The position numbers and the translations under genes were made by a program. A stretch of DNA of 64,000 bases, taken from contig OX597830.1 in assembly GCA_951406725.2 (NCBI GenBank), positions 39,308,001 to 39,372,000 of the forward strand, written 5' to 3'. The DNA is from Octopus vulgaris. Taxonomy: Eukaryota. Positions 2,427-52,705 of the stretch are shown one piece after another (the stretch's first letter is position 1; each line of letters starts with the position of its first letter). Under the pieces are notes generated by a model, which saw nothing but the letters and a program-made list of their open reading frames with translations, was not told the origin of the DNA and ran no database searches.

Positions 2427-2553
2427 AGGCGCAGGAATGGCTGTGTGATAAGAAGCTTGCTTCGCAGCTACGTGGTCCCGGGTCCAGTCCCGCTACGTAG
2501 CATCTTAGACAACTGTGAGTGGATTTGGTAAACGGAAATTGAAAGAATCCCGT
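2427..2553 (+). mobile_element. SINE head (family C)
   Basis: AGGCGCAGGAATGGCTGTGTG...GTGAGTGGATTTGGTAAACGGAAATTGAAAGAA matches 39985-40142 and 34339-34608. Confidence 0.7.
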
Positions 2554-2710
2554 TCTATATTTAAGAGATGAGGAATTATGTACATTATTTACATTCGACG
2601 GATATTTGTCCTCATTTTGTTTGTTGTTAACACAACGTTTCGGCTGATATACCCTCCAGCCTTCTTCAGGTGTCTTGGGAAAATTTCGAACCTGTTTTTT
2701 TATGTTGTTG

Positions 2711-2757
<47 letters not shown>

Positions 2758-3745
2758 GTTGTTGTTCAGGTCACTGCTTTGAATCATCAAACTCGGAATT
2801 TTGGGCTTAGTAGCCCGCGCTCTTAACCACTGCGCCATATGCCCGTGGACAATCATGGAGTTAATTTTAGGGCTTATAAATCTAATATTCTCCTCTCCCT
2901 TAATACCCGTTCCCATATGCTGCTCGGTCTGCTAAGGAGGTTATGGTGTCCTAGCATATGTGCTGCTTCCTTTAGTTTTCTTATTTTCCAGTGGTGTTCT
3001 CTGCCTATTATTTTAACTTAATCCCATAGGGGGAAGTGGTCTCCATTTCTCCATACATGATCAGTTATACCCGGTTTATCAATATCTCCTCGTGTCACAG
3101 CTTTGCGATGTTCGTCTACTCATATTTTGAGAGAGTGGCATGTTTCGCTTTTGTATATCCCACAAAAAGCTGCATGGGATGGAGTACACGGAGTCTTTGG
3201 TCATATTCTCTTCTATTGGTGGTTTTACTCGAATACTGCCATGATGTCATATGGGCCGCATATCTTTTGTATCTTTTCGGAAAGGCCTTTCACATATGGT
3301 AGACAGACTGTGAACAGTTTATTGGCATCATCCTTTCTCTTCTCCATAATTTGAGTGGATAGTATACTTTTGAGGTAGTTGTTGCTTAACAGATCATTAT
3401 TGAGCTTGATCGTTCCTTCGTGGTGTGTATCACGATATTTACTTATATTCTTTGCGCGATGTTTTAGACACTGAGCAATTCATCTCTTTACACTGTATGG
3501 ATGGTGGGAAATGAAGTTGAGGTATCGTCCTGTAAAGGTCGGCTTGCGATATACGGATGTCCTGAATTCATACTTGATGCGTGTTAGTAACACCTCCAGG
3601 ATTGTCTTTTTCCTTTTCCATTGTGAACTGTATGGATGGCTCTATTGAGTTCACATGATCTAACAGCACTAGGGACATCTTCCTGGTGGGGCCAGATTAT
3701 AAAGGTGTCATCAACATATCGTAGCCATAGTGTTGGTTTTTACTA
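2552..3745 (-). mobile_element. 5'-truncated Penelope-like element (RT C-terminus, GIY-YIG relic, terminal repeat with tRNA-like head and HHR)
   Basis: Minus-strand translation gives WLRYVDDTFIIW, IQFTMEKE, SVYRKPTFTGRYLNFISHHP and VYSIPCSFCGIYKSETC..EHRKAV, with stops; 3' repeat at 2552-2850. Confidence 0.85.
2629..2674 (-). ncRNA. Minimal type I hammerhead ribozyme motif
   Basis: GACAC-CTGAAGA-A-GGCTG-gagggtatat-CAGCC-GAAA-C-GTT-GTGTT: stem I GACAC/GTGTT, stem II GGCTG/CAGCC, loopless palindromic stem III (AACGTT), GUU triplet. Confidence 0.75.
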
Positions 3746-3749
3746 CGAT

Positions 3750-3979
3750 ATGTTGATGACATCTTTATACTCTGGTCCCACCAGGAAGATGTCCAAGTGC
3801 ATTTAGATGATGTAAATTCAATAAAGCCAACCATACAGTTCACAGTGGAAAAGGAAAAACGACAATCCTGGTGGTATTACTAACATGCATCAAGTATGAA
3901 TTCAGGACATCCGTATACCGCAAGCCGACCTCTACTGGACGATACCTCAACTTCATTTTCCCACCATCCATACAGTGTA
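3750..3979 (+). mobile_element. Inverted duplicate of the PLE RT segment (fold-back 5' end)
   Basis: Diverged reverse complement of ~3490-3720; encodes VDDIFILW...SVYRKPTSTGRYLNF. Confidence 0.85.
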
Positions 3980-4007: not shown

Positions 4008-4980
4008 TCCCCCCGACCCCTACTTCTTCAGTCCTTCATCCTTTCACCCCTACTCCCCTTCCCTTCTTCCCTCTTTCTCCCTCCCTCCATCCCTCTTCCC
4101 CTTCCCTCTGCTCCCTCACTCCCTCACTCCCCTTCTCTCTCCCCCTCTCCCTCTTTCCTCCCCTTCCTCCCCCCTCATCCCCATCCTCTCTCTCCCCCAT
4201 CCTCTCCCCCTCCCACCTCTCCTCCCCCTCTTCTTCCCCTCCCCTTCTCTCCCCCACTCTTCTCCCCCTCCCCCTCTTCTCCTCACTACACCACACAACT
4301 TTACACATCACATCATATATGATGTGCCATACTAATACATACACCAACTAATACATACTAATACGTACTAATACATACTAATACATACTAATACATACAC
4401 CAACCCTATACATACACACGTCCAGACCCCTCATACGCACTTATACTCCCTCATACACACACACACTTATACATACTAATACGTACTAATACATACTAAT
4501 ACATACTAATACATACACCAACCCCATACATACGCACGTCCAGACCAATCCTACGCACTAATACTCTCTCATACACACACACACACACCCTTATACATAC
4601 TAATACATACACCAACCCTATACATACACACGTCCAGACCCCTCCTACGCATTATTAGCTGGTCCTTCAACCCTATTATCAACCCTATTATCAACCCTAT
4701 TATCTCCCCTTATTTCGCTCTCGCGTCTCATGTTTGATCTTTGACCTCTGGCCGCAATCAGATCGCCATGTTGATTCGTTAGCTACTGCACGCATTTTTT
4801 TTCTCTCCTTCTTTCTGCGTTTTTTTTATCTCTGTGTATCTTTCTGTTGAAGAGCGTAGGCTCGAAACGTTAAAGACTTGTTTTATTTATATTTCCTGAG
4901 CGCCATACTAATACAATTGTTCGTTTGTTTTCCACCTGCCTTCGTCTTTTGTCTATTTTCATAAAGCTTCCCGTTATATA
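4008..4980 (+). repeat. 5' pseudo-LTR of the Neptune PLE
   Basis: Near-identical to 8490-9433; C/T-rich tract, (CTAATACATA)n-type and (CAACCCTATTAT)n minisatellites, HHR motif. Confidence 0.9.
4839..4876 (+). ncRNA. Minimal hammerhead motif with variant core CUGUUGA (5' pLTR)
   Basis: TCTTT-CTGTTGA-A-GAGC-gtag-GCTC-GAAA-C-GTT-AAAGA; stems I and II pair perfectly. Confidence 0.7.
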
Positions 4981-5595
4981 TTATGCGCTCACGTGGTCTC
5001 ACTTTCATCCTATATTCTACCAATACCACTATCAACACTTACCTCTACCTTGGATTTTCTTTACCTCTTGGATACTTACCATTGGCTGCACCTCTCTTTC
5101 GCGGATCAAAGTGACTTTGCATTGATGTGAAATCCTTAAAAAATATACCACGACGTCTACACATTTCTCACCTTGAACTTTCAACCTTGAACTTGTTCGC
5201 ATAAACTGTCCCGTTTGTTGTATTTTTATTTTCTCTTATATTACCACTTTTTTTACATTCATTTCATGCTTTCCACATTTTCCTGCATTTTTGTTCTCCT
5301 TTCCGTCTTTCTTCCCTCTCTGGATGTCCATACTCCGTTTCCTCTGCCTGCACCCCCCTTTTTTGCCTCCCCCTCTCTCTGCTTCCCTTCTTTCTTTCCC
5401 TTTTCCGTTTGCCCCGTCTTTTCTGCCCCTATCGCTTACTTATCTAGTTTTTTCATACGATTATTATTTTTTTGTTTTTTTGAACGTTTGTTTTTTCCCC
5501 TTTTTTCGCTATCCTTTTTTTCTATTTTTTTCATACGATAATTTTTGTTTTTTGTTTTTTTTGTTTTTTCGAACGTTTTTTTCCGCTATCCCATC

Positions 5596-8463
5596 ATGCC
5601 GGATCCTAGGTCCTACCTCCTCACCCTCCATCACCGTTTGAAGGATCATCTCCGTTCTCTTCCTGTATATTGCCTTCAGCCGTCCGTTAATCTCTCTCTA
5701 CTTCTTTTTAAAAAAACCGCTTCTCTAGCCATGTCTCTTTCCTAAGCCGCTGCCTACATCACCGACTCATCCCTAAAGGTTTCCGCCTCCACTTCCACCC
5801 TGCTCTCCACTCGGATTCTTCCATCTTACCCATACTCCGCACCACATCTTACCGCCTTATGCGGGCCACCATTCGCTCCAATCTCTCCAAACTACATGCC
5901 ATCAACCGCCTTCTTCCTCCTGCTTTCTCCACCTTCTTCTCCTCTCTGCCGCCTCTCTATGCTCCAAACACGCTACGCTTCATTATCCATTTGAATCAAC
6001 TCTTCCATCAATTTCTTTCTGATACCAAACTTCGTAAACTCCAATCACTCTTCCATTCCACCCTACCCGACGCCACTACCCCAACTCCTCCACCACCCTT
6101 CTCCCCTCCCGATAGGCTCCATCCACCCACACCTAACCCCACTGCCCCTCCCTACAACCCCTTCTCCCCTCCCGATAGGCTCCATCCACCTACACCTAAC
6201 CCTACTGCCCCGCCCAACCACCCCCCACACACCTCCCCAATCCCTCCCCCTCAGACCTCCACGAGACCTACCACCCCTCCTACTTCTATTCCACCCACCC
6301 CTTCTCCACTTCCGTCTGTTGTTACCATTCCCCCCGATCTTCCCCTCTCTGCGGCTGAACGCTCCGTCCTTGGTAGGGGTCTGCGTTTCATCCCCTTCAC
6401 TCCATCCTGTAAGGAATTCCAGACGCGAGTTGATGTCCACAGCTTTGTGCGCCGTGTCCGGTTGGGTGCGCATTACCACGACTCGCCACCCACACCCAAC
6501 GAAGAGGACTGCTTCACTGGCCTGGGCCGCCGACCATCCCCGTGGACGCCTGCCCCTGGCCAGATCCTAGCAGTGGATCTTTTCGCGGGCGCTTGTCAGC
6601 GTGCATTCGAGCGGTTCAACTTCTCCAGGCGCCAACGCCGCCTCAACATCTCCCCGGCTGAGCTCTTGGCTCTTCGTTCCCTCCAACGGCGCGCTGACAT
6701 TATCATCAAACCGGCTGACAAGGGTGGAGCTGTAGTGGTGTGGCGCGCGGACCTCTATAGGGCCGAGGCTTTCCGCCAACTCAATGACACCTCCTTCTAT
6801 TCCCCTCTGCCCTCTAACCCCACACGTAGCTACCAACAGACGGTATCCTCTACTGTCCACGACCTCATCTCGTCCTCCCGTCTCCCCCGCACCGCATCCA
6901 ACCTAATTGTGCGAACCCCACGTACCCCCACCATTTACTTCCTCCCCAAAATCCACAAACCCAACAACCCTGGCCGCCCCATCGTCTCCGCCTGTAACTG
7001 CCCCACGGAGCTCATCTCTAAATACCTCGACCGTGTCCTTGCCCCCTAGTGGCATCTCTTCCCTCCCACATCCACGATACCAACCATGCTCTCCGGCTTT
7101 TCAACTCTTTCTCCTTTCCTCCCGGCTCCTCCAAAATCCTTTTTACTATGGACATCCAAAGCCTCTATACTGTTATCCCTCACCACGAAGGACTGCAGGC
7201 CCTTCGACACTTTCTTGACCTCCGCTCTAACCCTGTACCTGACACCTCCACACTCATTCGTCTGGCCGAACTTGTCCTTACTCTGAACTGCTTCTCGTTC
7301 GCGGGCGAGTTCTACCATCAGGTCTCGGGAGTGGCCATGGGAACGCGAATGGGCCCCAACTATGCGAACCTGTTCGTTGGCTATGTTGAGGCCCAATTAT
7401 TCTCTAATTTCACTGGTCCCACTCCTGAACTATATGGTCGTTACATCGACGACATTATCGGTGCCACCTCACTCTCCCGCGAACATCTAGATTCCTTCCT
7501 CTCTTTCGTCCAATCTTTCCATCCAGCCCTCCACTTCACTTTCACTATCTCCAACACCTCTGTCTCCTTCCTCGACATTTCGGTTAGCATTCTTCACTCC
7601 ACTCTTACCACCTCCATTCACTACAAACACACAGACTCACACTCATACCTCAACTTCTCTTCCTCCCACCCAGAACACACCAAGCTTTCCATCCCCTATT
7701 CCCAATTCCTCCGTCTACGTAGGCTCTGTAGTGACGACCATGACTTTGAGACTCAGTCTCAACGTATGGCTCACAACTTCACCCTACGTGGATACCCCCC
7801 CCCCACCACTATCCACACCGCCCTTGCCAGAGCACGGTCCGTGGACCGTGTATCTGCTCTCTCTCCCCGAACCCGCCCTGTAGTCTCCCGCCTCCCTTTT
7901 CCCCTCACTTACCACCCCACGACCCTACGTCTCCAACGCACCATTCTTCGAGCTTTCCGTCATCTCCAGTCCGACCCGTCCACCTCTTCCCTAACCGACC
8001 CCTCCCTCTTTCAAACGAGCCCACAACCTTCGAGACCTTTTGGTCCAAGCTCCTTCCCTGACCCTACCTCCCAACCCGGCTCGTTCCCTGCTCCCGTCCA
8101 CGTTGCCGCACTTGCCCTTACCTCTCCAACACCACCCGCCTCACTAGCACCCACCATCGACCCTATCCCATCATCCACTCCTTCACCTGCACCTCCAGCA
8201 ATATTATCTATTGCATCTCTTGCTCTCTCTGCAATTCCTTGTACATCGGACAAACGGGACGCCGCTTGGCTGACCGGTTCGCGGAACACCCGTGACATCC
8301 ACCTTGCGAACGACACACCGGTCTCACGCCACCCGGCTCGCAACACCTTCTGTGTTCGGTTTGTCCTTGCCATCCGGATTCCCGTTTGCGCCGTGAACAG
8401 AATTAATCTTCTCTCTTCGCTCTTATACGCCATTTGGTCTCAACTCTCCCCCTCCTCATCTAA
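5596..8463 (+). pseudogene. PLE polyprotein (RT + GIY-YIG endonuclease), frameshifted in this sequence
   Basis: N-terminal HVSFLSRCLHHRLIPKGF; IIKPADKGGAVVVW; YFLPKIHKPNNPGRPIVS; TMDIQSLYTVIPH; QVSGVAMGTRMGPNYANLF; RYIDDI; FLDI; HYKHTDSHSYLNFSSSHP; RCRTCPY linker; FTCTSSNIIYCISCSLCNSLYIGQTGRRLADRFAEH; PFGLN. Frame breaks near 5710, 7047 and 7980-8400. Confidence 0.9.
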
Positions 8464-8489
8464 CCCCCTCTCCCCCTCCACCTATCCTT

Positions 8490-9426
8490 TCCCCCCGACC
8501 CCTACTTCTTCAGTCCTTCATCCTTTCATCCCTACTCCCCTTCCTTCTTCCCTCTTTCTCCCTCCCTCCTTCCCTCTTCCCCTTCCCTCTGCTCCCTCAC
8601 TCCCTCACTCCCCTTCTCTCTCCCCCTCTCCTCTTTCCTCCCCCTCCTCCCCTTCCTTCTCCCCTCCTCTCTCTCCCCATCCTCTCCCCCTCCCACCTCT
8701 CCTCCCCTCTTCTTCCCCTCCCCTTCTCTCCCCACTCTTCTCCCCCTCCCCTCTTCTCCTCACTACACCACACACTTTACACATCACATCATATATGATG
8801 TGCCATACTAATACATACACCAACTAATACATACTAATACGTACTAATACATACAAATACATACTAATACATACACCAACCCTATACATACACACGTCCA
8901 GACCCCCATACCACTTATACTCCCTCATACACACACACACTATACATACTAATACGTACTAATACATACTAATACATACTAATACATACACCAACCCTAT
9001 ACATACGCACGTCCAGACCAATCCTACGCACTAATACTCTCTCATACACACACACACACACACACTATACATACTAATACATCCTATACATACACACGTC
9101 CAACCCTACTACGCACTATTAGCTGGTCCTTCAACCCTATTATCAACCCTATTATCTCCCCTTATTTCGCTCTCGCGTCTCATGTTTGATCTTTGACCTC
9201 TGGCCGCAATCAGATCGCCATGTTGATTCGTTAGCTACTGCACGCATTTTTTTTCTCTCCTTCTTTCTGTGTTTTTTTTTCTTTCTGTGTATCTTTCTGT
9301 TGAAGAGCGTAGGCTCGAAACGTTAAAGACTTGTTTTATTTATATTTCCTGAGCGCCATACTAATACAATTGTTCGTTTGTTTTCCACCTGCCTTCGTCT
9401 TTTGTCAATTTTCATAAAGCTTCCCG

Positions 9427-9433
<7 letters not shown>
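8490..9433 (+). repeat. 3' pseudo-LTR of the Neptune PLE
   Basis: Direct repeat of 4008-4980; ends AAAGCTTCCCGTT followed by (TA)n. Confidence 0.9.
9292..9329 (+). ncRNA. Minimal hammerhead motif with variant core CUGUUGA (3' pLTR)
   Basis: Identical to 4839-4876. Confidence 0.7.
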
Positions 9434-9510
<77 letters not shown>

Positions 9511-19204: not shown

Positions 19205-20415
19205 TACCTGTTATATATAAGTTCTGTCCGAATTTAGAATAAAGAAAACAAGTGATCAAACGTTATATTTAATTGAAATTTAATCATCATTGTACTTTCC
19301 CTGATTATCTATGATTTCCTTCCATCTATTTACAAGCTTTTTAATCCCATCAATATAAAACTCTTCTGGTTTCAAAGCGAAGTACTCTGAAATATCAGTT
19401 TCGACCTCCTCCTGGCTTGCGAAAGTTATGTCATCCAAATTATTCTGTAAGCTGCGAAACACATGGTAGTCTGAAGGAGCAAGGTCCAGAGAATAAGGTG
19501 GATGAGCAATTTTTCCCAACCAAGCTCATCGATGTGATCTTTGCAGTGTGGGGTCGCGCATTGTCCTGATGAAACGTCACATCTTTTAGATTCACTAAAG
19601 AGTCTTTTTTTCTTCAACGCTTGGTTCAAACACTCTAATAGCTGACAGTAGACTTCAGTATTGATTGTTACATTAGGTGGTAACAATTCAAAGTGAATTG
19701 CTCCTTTGCAATCCCACCAGATAGAGAGAAGAACCTTTTTCACATGAAGTTCCCTTCTCTGTTGTGGTTGAGCTTTTTCCCTTTTACCAAGCCACTGTTT
19801 ACGACGTTTAACATTTCGATAAAAGATCAATTTTTGTCACCAGTCATAAGTCTATCCAAAAAGGGTGAAATGAACTTGTGAAAATGGAGAGAAGAGCAGA
19901 TGTCAAACCGGGATTTGCGGTTGCTTCCGGAAAATTCATGAGGCACCCATTTCCAAGTTTAGGAACCTTTCCAAGTTGTTGAAGATGACGATAAACAATT
20001 GTATGTTTTGATCTAAGCTTTACTGCCAATTCTTCAACTGATAATGCAGGATCTTCATACTGTTCGATCTTCATCTTCAAGGTTGAAATCTCCACTTCTG
20101 AATTTTGCAAACCATCTTCTGCAAGTTCTTTCATTCTTTTCTATAAACTGAGTGTATGTTTCGAGTAGCTTCGGCTGCAGAGTTTCCTTTTTTGTACTCA
20201 TAAAGCATTGTGTGCCTCAAATGCTCTTGGGATACTTCCATGTTAGAAAGGGTTTTAATCAAAGAAATTTTAATTCTATTATTCTGTAAAATAATGTTTA
20301 ATTAGTTTAGATGTACACAAATACATAAAAATAATTTTTAATTCCATTAGACATTCTATAAATTTCATTCAGTTTTAAAATGGTAAAATTTGACAGAACT
20401 AATAGGATGACCTGA
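19205..20415 (-). mobile_element. Mariner (DD34D) transposon, defective
   Basis: ATG at 20241 gives MEVSQEHLRHTMLYEYKKG; KVLLSIWWDCKG; HPPYSLDLAPSDYHVFRSLQN; RWKEIIDNQGKY; degenerate TIRs containing AGTTCTGTC/GACAGAACT; frameshifts. Confidence 0.88.
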
Positions 20416-20481: not shown

Positions 20482-20732
20482 TTGGGTTGCTGCATAATTA
20501 TTGCGACATTTTTTCAACAAATTTTATTCAACAAAAGCAATAACACCATGTAACAAAAACAGCTTTAAATGATTATTACGGAGCATATTCACCATTTACT
20601 TCAATTACGGCTTCCCATTTGCTTGGCAGAGGGTCAGACTGTCATTTAAAGATGTTTTTGTTAAATATTGTTATTGTTTCTGTTGAATAAAATTTGTTGA
20701 AAAAGAGCCGCAATAATTATACACCAACCCAA
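20482..20732. mobile_element. Mariner-derived MITE
   Basis: TIRs TTGGGTTGCTGCATAATTATTGCG / CGCAATAATTATACACCAACCCAA, TA flanks, ~90-bp inverted arms; internal minus-strand LPSKWEAVIEVNGEYAP* is a transposase C-terminus. Confidence 0.85.
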
Positions 20733-20989
20733 TATATGTATTTATGTATACATGAATGTATGTACGTTACCGATGATGTTGACTTGTTCTTCTTTTCGGA
20801 TTATGGCTGCTGTTGCTTAGTGAGTTGGATTGACTCAGTGCACAGCCTTTCCTCACTTTAAAAAAATCTTTTTGCACAGACATTGCACGATAACAACATT
20901 GATTAAGCTTCGTGCAATGGCCATACTCGATAACGAGGGGCAGCTACCATGTATGTACGTATGTATGCATGTATGTATGTGTATATAAA

Positions 20990-21660: not shown

Positions 21661-21765
21661 AATTCGGGGTGAGTACTTGATAATTATAAGCACCTGTGTA
21701 TACCGTTTGGTGGTGTAGGTGGTGGAGTAAATTGATCAAAATAAAAACATGATGCGAAGGATTCA

Positions 21766-21843
21766 GCGGTACATATGTTTCGGGCCTTTATTAGACAGAT
21801 TTATAACAATGCATAATGTATGTCTGTGGCCTTCTTCAGCCGC
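21766..21843 (-). ncRNA. Type I hammerhead motif (left palindrome arm)
   Basis: Reverse complement of 22070-22147. Confidence 0.75.
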
Positions 21844-22069
21844 GCACAACAGCTTCCACAAGGACATGTGTTACATCAAAAATTCTTGGTTGAGGATGCA
21901 AATCCTCTCATTCGCGTACGACATAATGCGGCAGCAGCATTGAGAGAAGAAAGAGATGGACGCTTCAATTCTATGCTGCTGCCGCATTATGTCGTACGCG
22001 AATGAGAGGATTTGCATCCCCAACCAAGAATTTTTGATGTAACACATGTCCTTGTGGAAGCTGTTGTGC

Positions 22070-22147
22070 GCGGCTGAAGAAGGCCACAGACATACATTAT
22101 GCATTGTTATAAATCTGTCTAATAAAGGCCCGAAACATATGTACCGC
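22070..22147 (+). ncRNA. Type I hammerhead motif (right palindrome arm)
   Basis: GCGG-CTGAAGA-A-GGCC...GGCC-C-GAAA-C-ATAT-GTA-CCGC: stem I GCGG/CCGC, extended stem II, palindromic stem III ACATATGT, GUA triplet. Confidence 0.75.
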
Positions 22148-22179
22148 TGAATCCTTCGCATCATGTTTTTATTTTGATC

Positions 22180-22244
<65 letters not shown>

Positions 22245-23737: not shown

Positions 23738-24503
23738 TTCTTTCTTTCTCTCTCTCTCTCTCTCTCTCTCTGCTTCTTGTGACGTCTTCGGTTTTCGTTC
23801 ATTTCTTCACGACACGCATCTCTAAGAAATATCGTTCATAAAAATTTTCCCAAATAATCTAAGACTTTAAGTACTTCACGAAGAAACATTATGAGTCGAT
23901 GTCTGACCTTCTAAAATATCAATGCTATACTTCAATGGGTGGTCATCCTATTCACATCAGAAGGTCGTTCAATGGGTTTTCTGACGTATATACGTTCTCT
24001 AAGAAATACCAATGTAGATGTTATTGTTTCTTTGTTATAGTAGTATTGTTCTTTAACCTAATATCGGTCCAGTATTCTACCCGAGAACAACATTTTCAGA
24101 CAATTTGATTAATATAAGAATTAAATTTTAATTAATATTCAATGAATCTTTTGTTTTGAAGACAGTCGGGAAATATTTGAATATTTGAGGAAGATTTTGC
24201 TCTTATTTTTACAAGACTCAGCAAACACATAGAGCCACCTCATTGAAGCTTCATTACTTATTCAAGCTAAATAACTACAGTGACATGTGCTGGTAGAGAG
24301 TTTCGATTATACTCCCACCATATACCACCTGCTTTTTGTCCCTTGTCACTTATCACAATTTAACAAAAGTAAACGTTACTAATTATTTCCTATAACTACA
24401 TACGATCCTTTCTTCATATAGCGTTGGAGGATGGCAATAAATTATATAAATCTGTTCCATATACAATCACATGTGTGAGTCGGTATATATATATATATAT
24501 ATA

Positions 24504-25258
24504 TATTTCGGCTGATCTTGAAACGTGAGCGTTCTCAAATAATCTTTGTACATGTGATATTTTACGGTTTTCCCTCCATATCTTCGTGAGTTATTTTTGA
24601 GTAAACACTATCTGGGAGACTTTTTCTTAAAGTAGTGGAAATAGCTAAAAAACTTTTTGGCTGCTATTTCTAATAATTTCAGTATGTGGCAAAGTAATTT
24701 ATTTTACTAAGCCCTAATTATATAACGTAATATTTTGAATACGCCTTAAATGGTCCTTTTACATATTGAACATTACTTGGTGAAATTAATTAATGACTAA
24801 TTGATTTTACCCTTAATTATTGATAATATAATTCGTTTCTCCCTGCTCTTTTACTGCGGTTCTCACCGCATTAGTATGTTTACTCACGTGGGTGGAAGTG
24901 GGAAGAACATGAATCTTCACTTGTACTTTTTGAATTTGCTAGTACTGGCAGTTTGAAGATGCTTGTCTGAGGTGATTCATTATCGGACGGGTATGTTCAT
25001 TTTTTTTAGTGTTTTCAAATCCAAATTTAAGAAATGTTGAGCTGACGAAAGAAATGCTGAGTTTTATTTCGGCTGATCTTGAAACGTACTGTTTTCCCTC
25101 CATATCTTCGTGAGTTATTTTTGAGTAAACACTATCTGGGAGACTTTTTCTTAAGGTAGTGGAAATAGCTAAAAAACTTTTTGGCTGCTATTTCTAATAA
25201 TTTCAGTATGTGGCAAAGTAATTTATTTTACTAAGCCCTAATTATATAACGTAATATT

Positions 25259-25265
<7 letters not shown>
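24504..25265 (+). mobile_element. Retrozyme-like / non-autonomous PLE-like partial tandem (unit ~561 bp)
   Basis: Direct repeats 24504-24741 and 25065-25265, bounded by (TA)n on both sides; no ORF; HHR halves at 25037-25087 and 24504-24538. Confidence 0.7.
25037..25088 (+). ncRNA. Hammerhead motif (3' end deleted in this copy, intact in the upstream repeat)
   Basis: TTGAG-CTGACGA-AAGA..GCTGA..TCGGC..TCTT-GAAACGT; the upstream copy continues GAAA-CG-TGAG-CG-TT-CTCAA. Confidence 0.65.
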
Positions 25266-25309
<44 letters not shown>

Positions 25310-25552: not shown

Positions 25553-27183
25553 CAGTTGCGGCTAAAATGTTCAGAACGGCATTGATTTCGTCAGAAAAGT
25601 AGGTATAAGTTTTTATCAAAGTTGTTTTATATTTTATAATTTTAACAGACAATAAATACAATATTAATTATTATTGTCTGAGATTTTGGTGCAATTTGAG
25701 AGGATAATACAAACGTTATGGATGATTTAGTGATTTACTGCTAAACCCATGGCGGCCAAAATGATCAGAACGGTTGAAAAAAATAACAAAATAATCAAAA
25801 ATAACAGAGAATACTGGAATTATTTAATATTTAGTGTGAAGCCCTTTAGCTTCAATCACACTTCGACATCTTCGACTGCATGAGGAAATTAAATTTTCAA
25901 TTTCTTGCTGGGTGATCTTATTCCATTCTTCCTGAAGGGCATTCCATAATTGCTCGGTTGTTTTAGGATTTCTGGCTTTCGAACGTTCTCCTAGAATATT
26001 CCACACATTTTTAATAGGATTAAGAGCTGGGCTTTGAACAAGCCAATCCATAGCAATAATCTTTTCAGCCTTGAGAAAGTTCATGACCACCTTAGCCTTG
26101 TGACATGGGGCATTGGCCTGCATGAATATGGGTGATCGCTTAGTTGAATTTCTCAGCACAGGCAAGACATGATCTTTTACAAGTTGTTTATAAACTCCTG
26201 CATTTACCTTTCCATGTAATCGCACCAAAGGGCCCACACCATCTCCAGATATCATCTACCAAACCATGACACTTCCTCCACCGAATTTAACGTTAGTCTT
26301 AAGGCATTTAGGCGACAATTTTTCACCTACTTTTTGACAAACGTACCTTTTCCCATCTGATCCCATCTAACATAAACTTAGATTCATCACAGAAATGCAC
26401 CGTTTGCCATTTTTCTTGAGACCACAACACATGTTCGGTTGCAAAGGTAAGACGACACTTTTTATTCTTGGAGCTGATCAGTGGTTTCACTGCAGGTGCT
26501 CTTGCTTGTAGGTCATGTTCAACTAAACAACGAGACACAGTTTTTCGAAATAAAGTTTTCTTCAGTACAATGCTAATTTCCCGAGAAACAACAGCAGCAG
26601 TTTTAAATCTGTCCTTTTTAACCAACTTTACCATAGCACGATCTTCTCTCTTGCTCGTTTTTCTTGGCCTACCTGTAGACTTTCTTGCTTCGCACGAACC
26701 ACAATCATCGTAGACCTTAAGAATACCGTGAACAACACTTTTTCACTTGTTAACAATCTTTGCAATAGACCCAATACTTAAAGTATCCTTCTTTCGGAGC
26801 TTAATAATCTGCTGACGAATTGGTAACGGAGTAAGTGGCATTATATTATCAAAGTACACTGCAGATACTCTTACTAATGTATAGTAAATGAACCGTCAGG
26901 TAAACAAATTCAACACATTAAAGTTCACCGGTTAAATATACTAAAACATGGAGTAAAAGCAACCGTTCTGATCATTTTGGTCGCCATGGATTTGGCAGTA
27001 AATCACTAAATCCTCCATAAATTTTGTATTATCCTCTAAAATTGCACCAAAATCTCAGACAATAACCATTAATATTGTATTTAGTGTCTGTTAAAATTAT
27101 AAAATATAAAACAACTTTGATAAAAACTTATATCTACTTTTCTGACGAAAACAATGCCATTCTGAACATTTTGGTCACAACTG
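25553..27183 (-). mobile_element. Full-length Tc1-family IR/DR transposon, defective
   Basis: ~224-bp TIRs (25553-25776; 26960-27183) starting CAGTTG, each with AAAATG(T/A)TCAGAA direct repeats at both ends; TA TSD. Confidence 0.93.
25824..26841 (-). pseudogene. Tc1 transposase pseudogene
   Basis: MPLTPLPIRQQII...K*..TGRPRKTS..FCDESKF..MQANAPCH..SPALNPIKNVW; second catalytic D and the E are mutated; stops and a frameshift. Confidence 0.9.
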
Positions 27184-27835: not shown

Positions 27836-27950
27836 GGCAAAGAAGAACTGGAATTCAAATATATAAAGGATGTAAAAAATAATATAAAGTATTTATAAAA
27901 TTATAAAGAATATAAAATATATAAAAGTATAAAAAACTATAAAAAAATTC

Positions 27951-28979
27951 AGCAGAATTGTTGGGCATTCTGGGACTGGATTTAGCCAGCGAAAAATTGC
28001 CGAAAATATTCAAATTCCTCTTGCTACTGTTAACAGAATTGCAGTGCAATTCAAAAGCCAAGGAAAAGAATCAAAAGATTCTCGTCCCGGCCGACCTGAG
28101 CCCTCGGAAAGGAAGCTTCGCTGTTTGAAGAGAATTGTGGAAAACGGACCCCGTTCGAAGACTTCTGACATTGCAAAGCAGCTAAAAGTTAGTCCAAGAA
28201 CGTGTGTTACATATCGGCATAAGCTTGGATATTACGGACGAACAGCTAGAAGAAAACCTCTCCTTCAAACAATTAATATCATGAAAACAAAGAAATGGGC
28301 TAAGGGGATGTCAGAAAAATCTAGTTCATTTTGGGATAGAGTGATTTTCTCAGATGAATCCAGATTTGTATTATTTTCAGACAGTGCACGTGTTTCGGTC
28401 TGGAGGCTTCCTAATCAAGAATTTGATTTGAAACAACTCCAACCAACTGTGAAACATGGCGGTATTTCTGTAATGGTATGGGGAGCTGTCACCAGCAACA
28501 ATCGTTCTGAACTGATTGAATGTGTTGGAACCATAAACTCTGAAAAATACATCGAAATACTTAAGCAAGGACTATTTCCGATGTATTCACACGATAATAT
28601 AACGAAAAATGAGTTTTTATTCATGGAAGATGGGGCTCCATACCACACAGCGAAAAAGAATCAACAATGGCTGACCGAAAATGGGATCAAAAAGCTTCCT
28701 TGGCCGAGCCATTCTCCTAACATGAACCCAATTGAAAATCTTTGGAGCATACTAGATAGAGCTATACGAAAAACTCGACAGAAACCTAAATCTAAAGATG
28801 AATTGTCTCGATTGTTGCGTGAAAAATGGGCAGAAATTCCACAAGAGACAATCACAAAACTCATCAGTTCAATGCCTAAAAGAGTTTCTCAATTAAAAAC
28901 TCCAAATACTAAAGTATGTAGTCCTACCTATCGATTACATTTCAATTATTCGCTTTGCATATTAAATAAAAGATTTTGA
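27951..28979 (+). CDS. Tc1 DD34E transposase (open frame, 5' end/start lost)
   Basis: Frame is open upstream of 28044 (RIVGHSGTGFSQRKIAENIQIPLATVNRI HTH); GRP; VIFSDES; MEDGAPYH with 34 aa between D and the E of SPNMNPIENLW; no left TIR seen. Confidence 0.8.
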   Translation, partial: SRIVGHSGTGFSQRKIAENIQIPLATVNRIAVQFKSQGKESKDSRPGRPEPSERKLRCLKRIVENGPRSKTSDIAKQLKVSPRTCVTYRHKLGYYGRTARRKPLLQTINIMKTKKWAKGMSEKSSSFWDRVIFSDESRFVLFSDSARVSVWRLPNQEFDLKQLQPTVKHGGISVMVWGAVTSNNRSELIECVGTINSEKYIEILKQGLFPMYSHDNITKNEFLFMEDGAPYHTAKKNQQWLTENGIKKLPWPSHSPNMNPIENLWSILDRAIRKTRQKPKSKDELSRLLREKWAEIPQETITKLISSMPKRVSQLKTPNTKVCSPTYRLHFNYSLCILNKRF

Positions 28980-52514: not shown

Positions 52515-52705
52515 CATCAGCAAAAAATACCTTAGGAATGAGAACCCAGGGTTTGGTTCAAAATTACACCAGGACACCTGATGAAGGCTGGAGAGTAAAT
52601 CAGCCGAAACAAACAAAATGAGGACACACATCTGTCCAATGTAAATAATGTACAGAATTCTTCATCTCTAAAATATAGAACAGTAAACAAGTACTATACT
52701 ATACT
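52393..52705 (+). mobile_element. Solo tRNA-head + (AAT)n + HHR module (PLE terminal repeat)
   Basis: Homologous to 2552-2850; HHR GACAC-CTGATGA-A-GGCTG..CAGCC-GAAAC at 52573-52610 lacks its 3' strand. Confidence 0.8.

Follow-up and report, generated by a model that had tools for sequence, protein, structure and literature searches.

The 762-base insert at 24504–25265 of the window, the 64,000-nucleotide stretch of Octopus vulgaris DNA analysed here, would be best explained as a non-autonomous, Penelope-dependent hammerhead element of the non-LTR retrozyme type that arrived in a single insertion event (probability of about 0.8). The RNA from which it was copied could have been a ligated circle of 561 nt, to which we would give slightly less than even odds; the insert locus by itself fits a circle and an uncut tandem transcript nearly equally well. 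Judged by its sequence, the family would be an addition to a known class, with the characters of an animal non-LTR retrozyme save for the size first reported for that class and the rule of two intact ribozymes.

At the least this enlarges by one the set of animal non-LTR retrozymes or of non-autonomous Penelope families; the new family has a unit larger than usual and very many truncated copies. Whether the partial tandems of Penelope elements originate from circles or from uncut read-through is unsettled, circles having been proposed (PMC4209133; PMC7229834), while the in vitro data reported in PMC11167929 point to an uncut RNA template. If the template was indeed circular, the insert would bear on that origin; and a clustering of the family's deletions at the cut site would mean that partial tandems derive from processed monomers. 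A short, abundant family that targets (TA)n and offers thousands of mappable ends would make the question of the template testable from an assembly alone.

Layout of the insert and its divided hammerhead

The insert consists of a full 561-bp unit and a partial second copy between (TA)n runs, just as the original prediction had described it; the runs are (TA)11 and (TA)23. Positions 24504–24526 return unchanged at 25065–25087 (23/23 nt, at a spacing of 561 bp), and 24563–24741 return at 25087–25265 with 177 of 179 nt alike (99%), the mismatches being 24566/25090 and 24631/25155; the whole amounts to 1.36 units by length, or 1.42 by unit coordinates. Between these two blocks copy 2 is without 37 bp directly after GAAACG (with a 1-nt ambiguity of placement), so that the loss predicted there is real, and its size and position, formerly given as about 38 bp after GAAACGT, are corrected; in an alternative parse, 35 bp would have been lost from a short-loop form found in the family, with a 3-nt microhomology. 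Each end of the insert meets (TA)n through a short microhomology, sharing 2–3 nt with the adjoining run, which makes a target duplication unreadable. The features are as follows.

24484–24505, no strand: (TA)11 on the left, with 3 nt in common with the unit start; likely the 5′ portion of the microsatellite that served as target
24504–25064, +: full 561-bp unit, circularly permuted, starting in the hammerhead stem II loop, non-coding, predicted to be strongly folded
24504–24538, +: 3′ half of the predicted hammerhead; stem II 3′ strands 24507–24512 and 24516–24519, GAAA 24520–24523
24523–24525 with 24530–24532, +: predicted hammerhead stem III, with loop 24526–24529
24533/24534 boundary, +: predicted cut after the GUU triplet; stem I 3′ strand 24534–24538
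25037–25064, +: 5′ half of the predicted hammerhead; stem I 5′ strand 25037–25041, core CUGACGA 25042–25048
25049–25052 and 25056–25061, +: predicted hammerhead stem II 5′ strands
25065–25265, +: partial second copy that closes the insert on its 3′ side, equal to unit 24504–24741 minus 37 bp
25086–25087, +: junction of the 37-bp deletion; loop III, stem III 3′ strand, cleavage site and stem I 3′ strand gone
25264–25309, no strand: (TA)23 on the right, with 2 nt in common with the insert end; likely the 3′ portion of the target

The GC content is 0.32 across 24001–25000. The insert contains no ORF of at least 120 aa, an RT plus GIY-YIG ORF is absent between the two repeats at this locus, and a comparison with 120 Penelope homologues, all from one clade and akin to the Penelope-like element that the window itself carries, gave no significant protein remnant within the insert (best tblastn E 0.08). 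Neither blastn nor nhmmer found a second copy of the family elsewhere in the 64-kb window. A tRNA-derived SINE was considered as well, and was rejected since no tRNA was found in the insert.

A strict descriptor of type I hammerheads (5 bp in stem I, 4 bp in stem II, 3 bp in stem III, and CUGANGA/GAAA/NUH) matched the circularised unit exactly once, with the core at 25042, GAAA at 24520 and a 4-nt loop III; the minus strand of the circle, the linear 64-kb window and 20,000 dinucleotide-shuffled circles gave no match. The halves, once joined, thus give the type I hammerhead that had been foreseen, with a 5-bp stem I, a 3-bp stem III and a GUU site, and the insert does start inside stem II, where 24504 falls in the loop. 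Stem II is prolonged by a second helix of 6 bp (25056–25061 with 24507–24512; mean pair probability 0.97). Rfam gives nothing for the insert at its gathering score, and when relaxed to E 10 it gives 17 weak matches, none of them to a hammerhead model; the motif is split at this locus.

The ribozyme predicted from these letters is atypical, with an A-U pair in place of G10.1-C11.1 and a GUU site. Its first stem II pair is A25049-U24519 and not G10.1-C11.1, treated as a conserved hammerhead feature in PMC4209133, and several relatives carry an A at 24519, so that the position would be unpaired unless its partner changed too; GUU is named among the cleavable hammerhead sites (PMC3138052). In the predicted fold of the circle the pairs of stems I and II have probabilities of 0.7–0.98, with one pair at 0.18, those of stem III remain below 0.01, and forcing the active hammerhead fold costs 5.3 kcal/mol over the minimum. 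A ribozyme assembled in cis from the core of copy 2 and the cut site of copy 1 would need about 10 kcal/mol more than the minimum fold of the linear insert, and is disfavoured. A contiguous ribozyme is absent at the insert locus, and the insert is a derivative copy.

The family in sequencing-run contigs and its strand-specific constraint

Part of the unit is contained in 20 of the 24 public runs listed, under four organism labels, with a maximum share of its words of 0.33; none of these 24 is an RNA run that holds the unit. The contigs of four runs (X1, X2, X4 and X9) were aligned on 24380–25064 at 80% likeness, and serve as sequence evidence and not as evidence of expression, X9 being only guessed to be RNA. 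On that stretch 3264 contigs were placed from X1, 349 from X2, 737 from X4 and 184 from X9, and the left flank was matched without difference in X1, X2 and X4. The unit is therefore multi-copy, contrary to the single-copy local duplication against which the original prediction had asked to be checked, and the idea of a retrozyme-like, non-coding repeat with a hammerhead, which entered the genome as a partial tandem, gains support.

The summed depth over 24679–24701, which is not a copy number, reaches about 64,000 times that of the left flank in X1, 19,000 times in X2 and 3,900 times in X4. The profile is alike in all four runs, with a peak at 24656–24770, a high level across the hammerhead and the 100 nt that follow, and a trough at 24840–24885 (2.8 times the flank in X1, 9.2 in X2 and 0.6 in X4). 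With the middle of the unit at just 0.6–9 times the flank depth, most copies would be fragments or would have other middles. Two further features are defined by these contigs.

24656–24770, +: most abundant part of the family by depth, likely the preferred start of reverse transcription (3′ end of the element)
24817–25023, +: middle of the unit, scarce in the family contigs but structured; a two-sided change from G-C to A-U at 24856/24869 in X9

At least 10 X1 contigs pass 24725 and then enter (TA)n, next to a TATATA-like motif (among the 24 loose ends listed out of 248), and the insert itself enters (TA)n after the equivalent of 24741; an optional tail of 30–40 bp, reflecting two start sites of reverse transcription, is described for Penelope-like elements. 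Depth and ends, as read from the sequence, fit many 5′-truncated copies that have (TA)n as their target and their 3′ region in common.

Three joints (one in X2 and two in X9, among the 12 listed out of 13) lead from 25056/25064 to 24530, with stem II and GAAA complete in between. The hammerhead is thus contiguous in other copies, and 24504 is merely the point at which the insert copy was truncated at its 5′ side; in other words, the claim of a hammerhead complete only across the monomer junction stands for the insert locus and falls for the family. The scarce middle is covered by contigs at 24726–24865 (X2), 24767–24898 (X9) and 24846–24980 (X4), and 24868–24876 is covered without being bridged by 31 letters on each side (among the 32 records listed out of 4589). 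Taken together, the contigs cover the whole 561-nt cycle, the middle being scarce. Loop III is shorter in X2, X4 and X9, and stem III can be a perfect palindrome there, which PMC4209133 presents as a signature of hammerheads that work as dimers; of the Xenopus retrozyme dimers described in 10.64898/2026.07.22.740005, only 1 of 8–9 cleaved in vitro.

Within 24563–24740 the two copies of the insert share the minority letter at 11 of the 12 listed sites where the X1 majority differs, which would point to a single template, or else to sister units that were very close. X1 is without cover at several sites in 24846–24881 despite the exact match of its flank, and the insertion may be absent from the X1 locus, a coverage hole alone proving nothing; an empty site was not seen, and no listed contig crosses the left TA run. 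The 37-bp deletion is absent among the listed joints, which is uninformative given that the alignments break near 24530.

Some other observations concern the diversity of these repeats. Seven X1 and four X4 contigs belong to a subfamily with a 65-bp internal tandem duplication (unit 24544–24608, joint from 24608 to 24544), which sits just downstream of the predicted cleavage site. The segment 24654–24689 has loose ends on both sides, which suggests that this short piece is common to other, more diverged repeat families; it may inflate the depth peak, and it may be a common motif of recognition by reverse transcriptase. The 120 metagenome loci with a 16-nt motif show no likeness beyond 29 nt and were taken as chance, and viral contigs gave no matches to the unit.

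The unit is constrained as a plus-strand RNA. Its plus strand folds with a z of −6.1 when linear (0 of 100 shuffles as low) and of −5.3 to −6.2 when circular, the minus strand with a z of −2.4, and among control segments without long microsatellites 2 of 28 fall below −4, one of these being a long inverted repeat. At 7 of the 40 variant sites listed (66 in all, not mutually independent) a predicted plus-strand pair is broken, against 14.7 expected under random placement of the same substitutions (P 0.0014), and in the middle of the unit at 2 of 19 against 6.4 expected (P 0.008), whereas on the minus strand 15 breaks compare with 16.0 expected (P 0.43). Read by eye, the distal helix of stem II differs at four positions in one X9 contig, and pairing is preserved at each. 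Of the variants in long-range pairs 3 of 6 break them, and as the sites are non-independent, the local helices are better supported than an overall rod.

Template of the insertion and rival explanations

On the reading given at the outset, a tandem master locus would have been transcribed on the plus strand, and its hammerheads, probably as dimers, would have excised monomers that were then ligated into circles. A Penelope RT-endonuclease would have nicked (TA)n and primed inside the RNA, some 190–210 nt downstream of the cut site, and the RT would have copied 1.4 turns before halting in the loop of stem II. Two substitutions and the loss of 37 bp would date from the insertion or from a later time, and they would leave the locus without a contiguous ribozyme. 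Internal starts and A/T-rich cleavage are reported in vitro for an anole Penelope element (PMC11167929), and copying round a circular RNA has been proposed for retrozymes (PMC7229834).

The insert extends 30 nt beyond the predicted cut site, so that the template must have been either uncut or ligated there, and the same Penelope-dependent element could instead have been copied from an uncleaved linear read-through of the tandem master locus, the RT having begun inside a downstream unit and stopped 1.4 units upstream, with no need of a circle; we regard this as a substantial possibility, if one that we would not favour. In its favour, the anole enzyme primes internally and in vitro mainly uses unprocessed RNA, hammerhead mutants of that element still insert (both in PMC11167929), and partial tandems are the standard layout of Penelope elements, the non-autonomous Chlamys MRC1 included (PMC8557442). 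The weakness of the predicted hammerhead favours uncut RNA as well, and copy 2 resembles the short loop III of the family while copy 1 has a loop of 4 nt, so that the copies could be two different units. Repeated 5′ truncation, however, would presumably shorten the masters unless circles or template jumps regenerated them, and the minority letters common to both copies fit one template, yet equally a young homogeneous tandem.

A different origin, which seems unlikely to us, would start from an autonomous Penelope family of which the unit is the pLTR; an internal deletion, suffered by one or a few copies, would have fused that pLTR to itself, and the high-copy part would be no self-standing retrozyme family and would consist of ordinary 5′-truncated 3′ ends of Penelope. 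Retrozymes and pLTRs are held to be related (10.64898/2026.07.22.740005), and the depth, high at about 25024–25064 and 24504–24816 and very low at 24840–24885, is such as a deletion junction would produce; against this, the diverged middle is present in three runs under three organism labels, its variants spare the plus-strand pairs, and the insert has no Penelope protein remnant (within the limits of the one-clade search above). The high-copy family with its closed cycle, the strength of the fold and the sparing of plus-strand pairs, with no such effect on the minus strand, make it unlikely, too, that a single unit was inserted and then gained its extra 0.4 through unequal recombination or a local duplication. 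The copies are 99% identical, one with a deletion, as such an event could have left them; but the adjacencies 24741–24742 and 25064–24504 are both found in other copies of the family, whose cycle a duplication would have had to rebuild exactly, and the microhomology with (TA)n at each end of the insert also tells against this account, which we consider highly improbable.

The preferred reading, of a single insertion by Penelope machinery, admits a more specific and improbable version, in which the insert is the fossil of a Penelope RT that went 1.4 times round a ribozyme-processed RNA and crossed the cut site twice, one crossing being clean and the other losing 37 nt when the enzyme jumped a self-cleaved nick. 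By simple length, a deletion would span the cut site with a chance of about 10–20%, and for this reason the jump is only a lead.

Relation to known systems and other elements of the window

The element has the attributes by which retrozymes are recognised: a multi-copy head-to-tail unit, a type I hammerhead by prediction, a GC content below 45%, the absence of coding sequence, and a fold z of −6.1. It is like the animal non-LTR retrozymes, which the accounts in PMC7229834 and 10.64898/2026.07.22.740005 portray as non-coding, low in GC, self-paired, with a type I hammerhead and a head-to-tail arrangement, and it is also like retrozymes in its co-occurrence with Penelope elements and in the copying round a circle proposed for them. 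Its 561 nt exceed the 170–400 nt given for invertebrate retrozymes (PMC7229834), and fall within the limits of 51–972 bp set by Li et al. 2026 (10.64898/2026.07.22.740005). Unlike the non-LTR retrozymes, it comprises only 1.4 units without a contiguous ribozyme, and most copies of the family look like 3′ fragments; the two consecutive units with complete hammerheads by which Li et al. define an active copy (10.64898/2026.07.22.740005) are not found at the insert.

It is also like the pLTRs of EN+ Penelope elements such as Neptune and Nematis, as these are described in PMC4209133 and PMC8557442, in its 5-bp helix I and long helix II, its short and often palindromic helix III, the position of the hammerhead near the 3′ end, the partial tandem, the 5′ truncation, the microsatellite target, and the lack of a readable target duplication; it differs from them in having no ORF between the repeats and no G10.1-C11.1 pair. 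It resembles, too, the non-autonomous Chlamys MRC1, a derivative of Penelope with pLTRs and head-to-tail insertions (PMC8557442), although Chlamys elements are algal and, according to the same source, belong to a clade mostly without canonical hammerheads. A search that covered few subscription journals found no description of an octopus or cephalopod hammerhead, ribozyme or retrozyme family like that of the insert; 235 hammerhead-1 matches were counted in the giant squid genome (PMC6962438), and the family may already be catalogued in repeat databases.

The window itself, at about 4200–9434 on the plus strand, carries a broken Penelope-like element of the Neptune/Nematis type with two pLTRs, whose RT homologues bear PF00078, PF26215 and the GIY-YIG domain PF01541, and which has the CX4CxxC linker ahead of GIY-YIG, as in Neptune and Nematis (PMC8557442). 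Both of its pLTRs contain a hammerhead-like motif with the variant core CUGUUGA and a palindromic stem III, and the element terminates in (TA)n through a TATATA motif (read by eye), in the same way as the insert. It exemplifies a likely kind of mobiliser, with no significant similarity between its pLTR and the unit: the local alignment of the two is matched in score by 883 of 1000 shuffles, and an alignment anchored at the 3′ side, with ends chosen by hand, by 14 of 1000, a weak hint only.

Other repeats of the window deserve mention. A near-perfect palindrome of 454 bp at 21730–22183, with a CUGANGA...GAAA motif on both strands (22074 on the plus and 21839 on the minus), is possibly an inverted pair of Penelope pLTRs, and long palindromes are also present at 3489–3979 (89% self-complementary) and 20483–20754 (74%). 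The two copies of a repeat at 2552–2692 (minus) and 52555–52681 (plus), in which stem II measures 6 bp and the hammerhead core is minimal, are probably fragments of another Penelope family. As for DNA transposons, a Tc1-like element lies in (TA)n at 25553–27183, 290 bp from the insert, with terminal inverted repeats of 224 bp that are 93% alike and a broken transposase that matches DDE_3; an open Tc1-like transposase frame of 348 aa (DDE_3, HTH) occupies 27933–28979 on the plus strand, and a mariner transposase fragment (Transposase_1), whose best named relative is 62% identical, is found at 19426–19836 on the minus strand.
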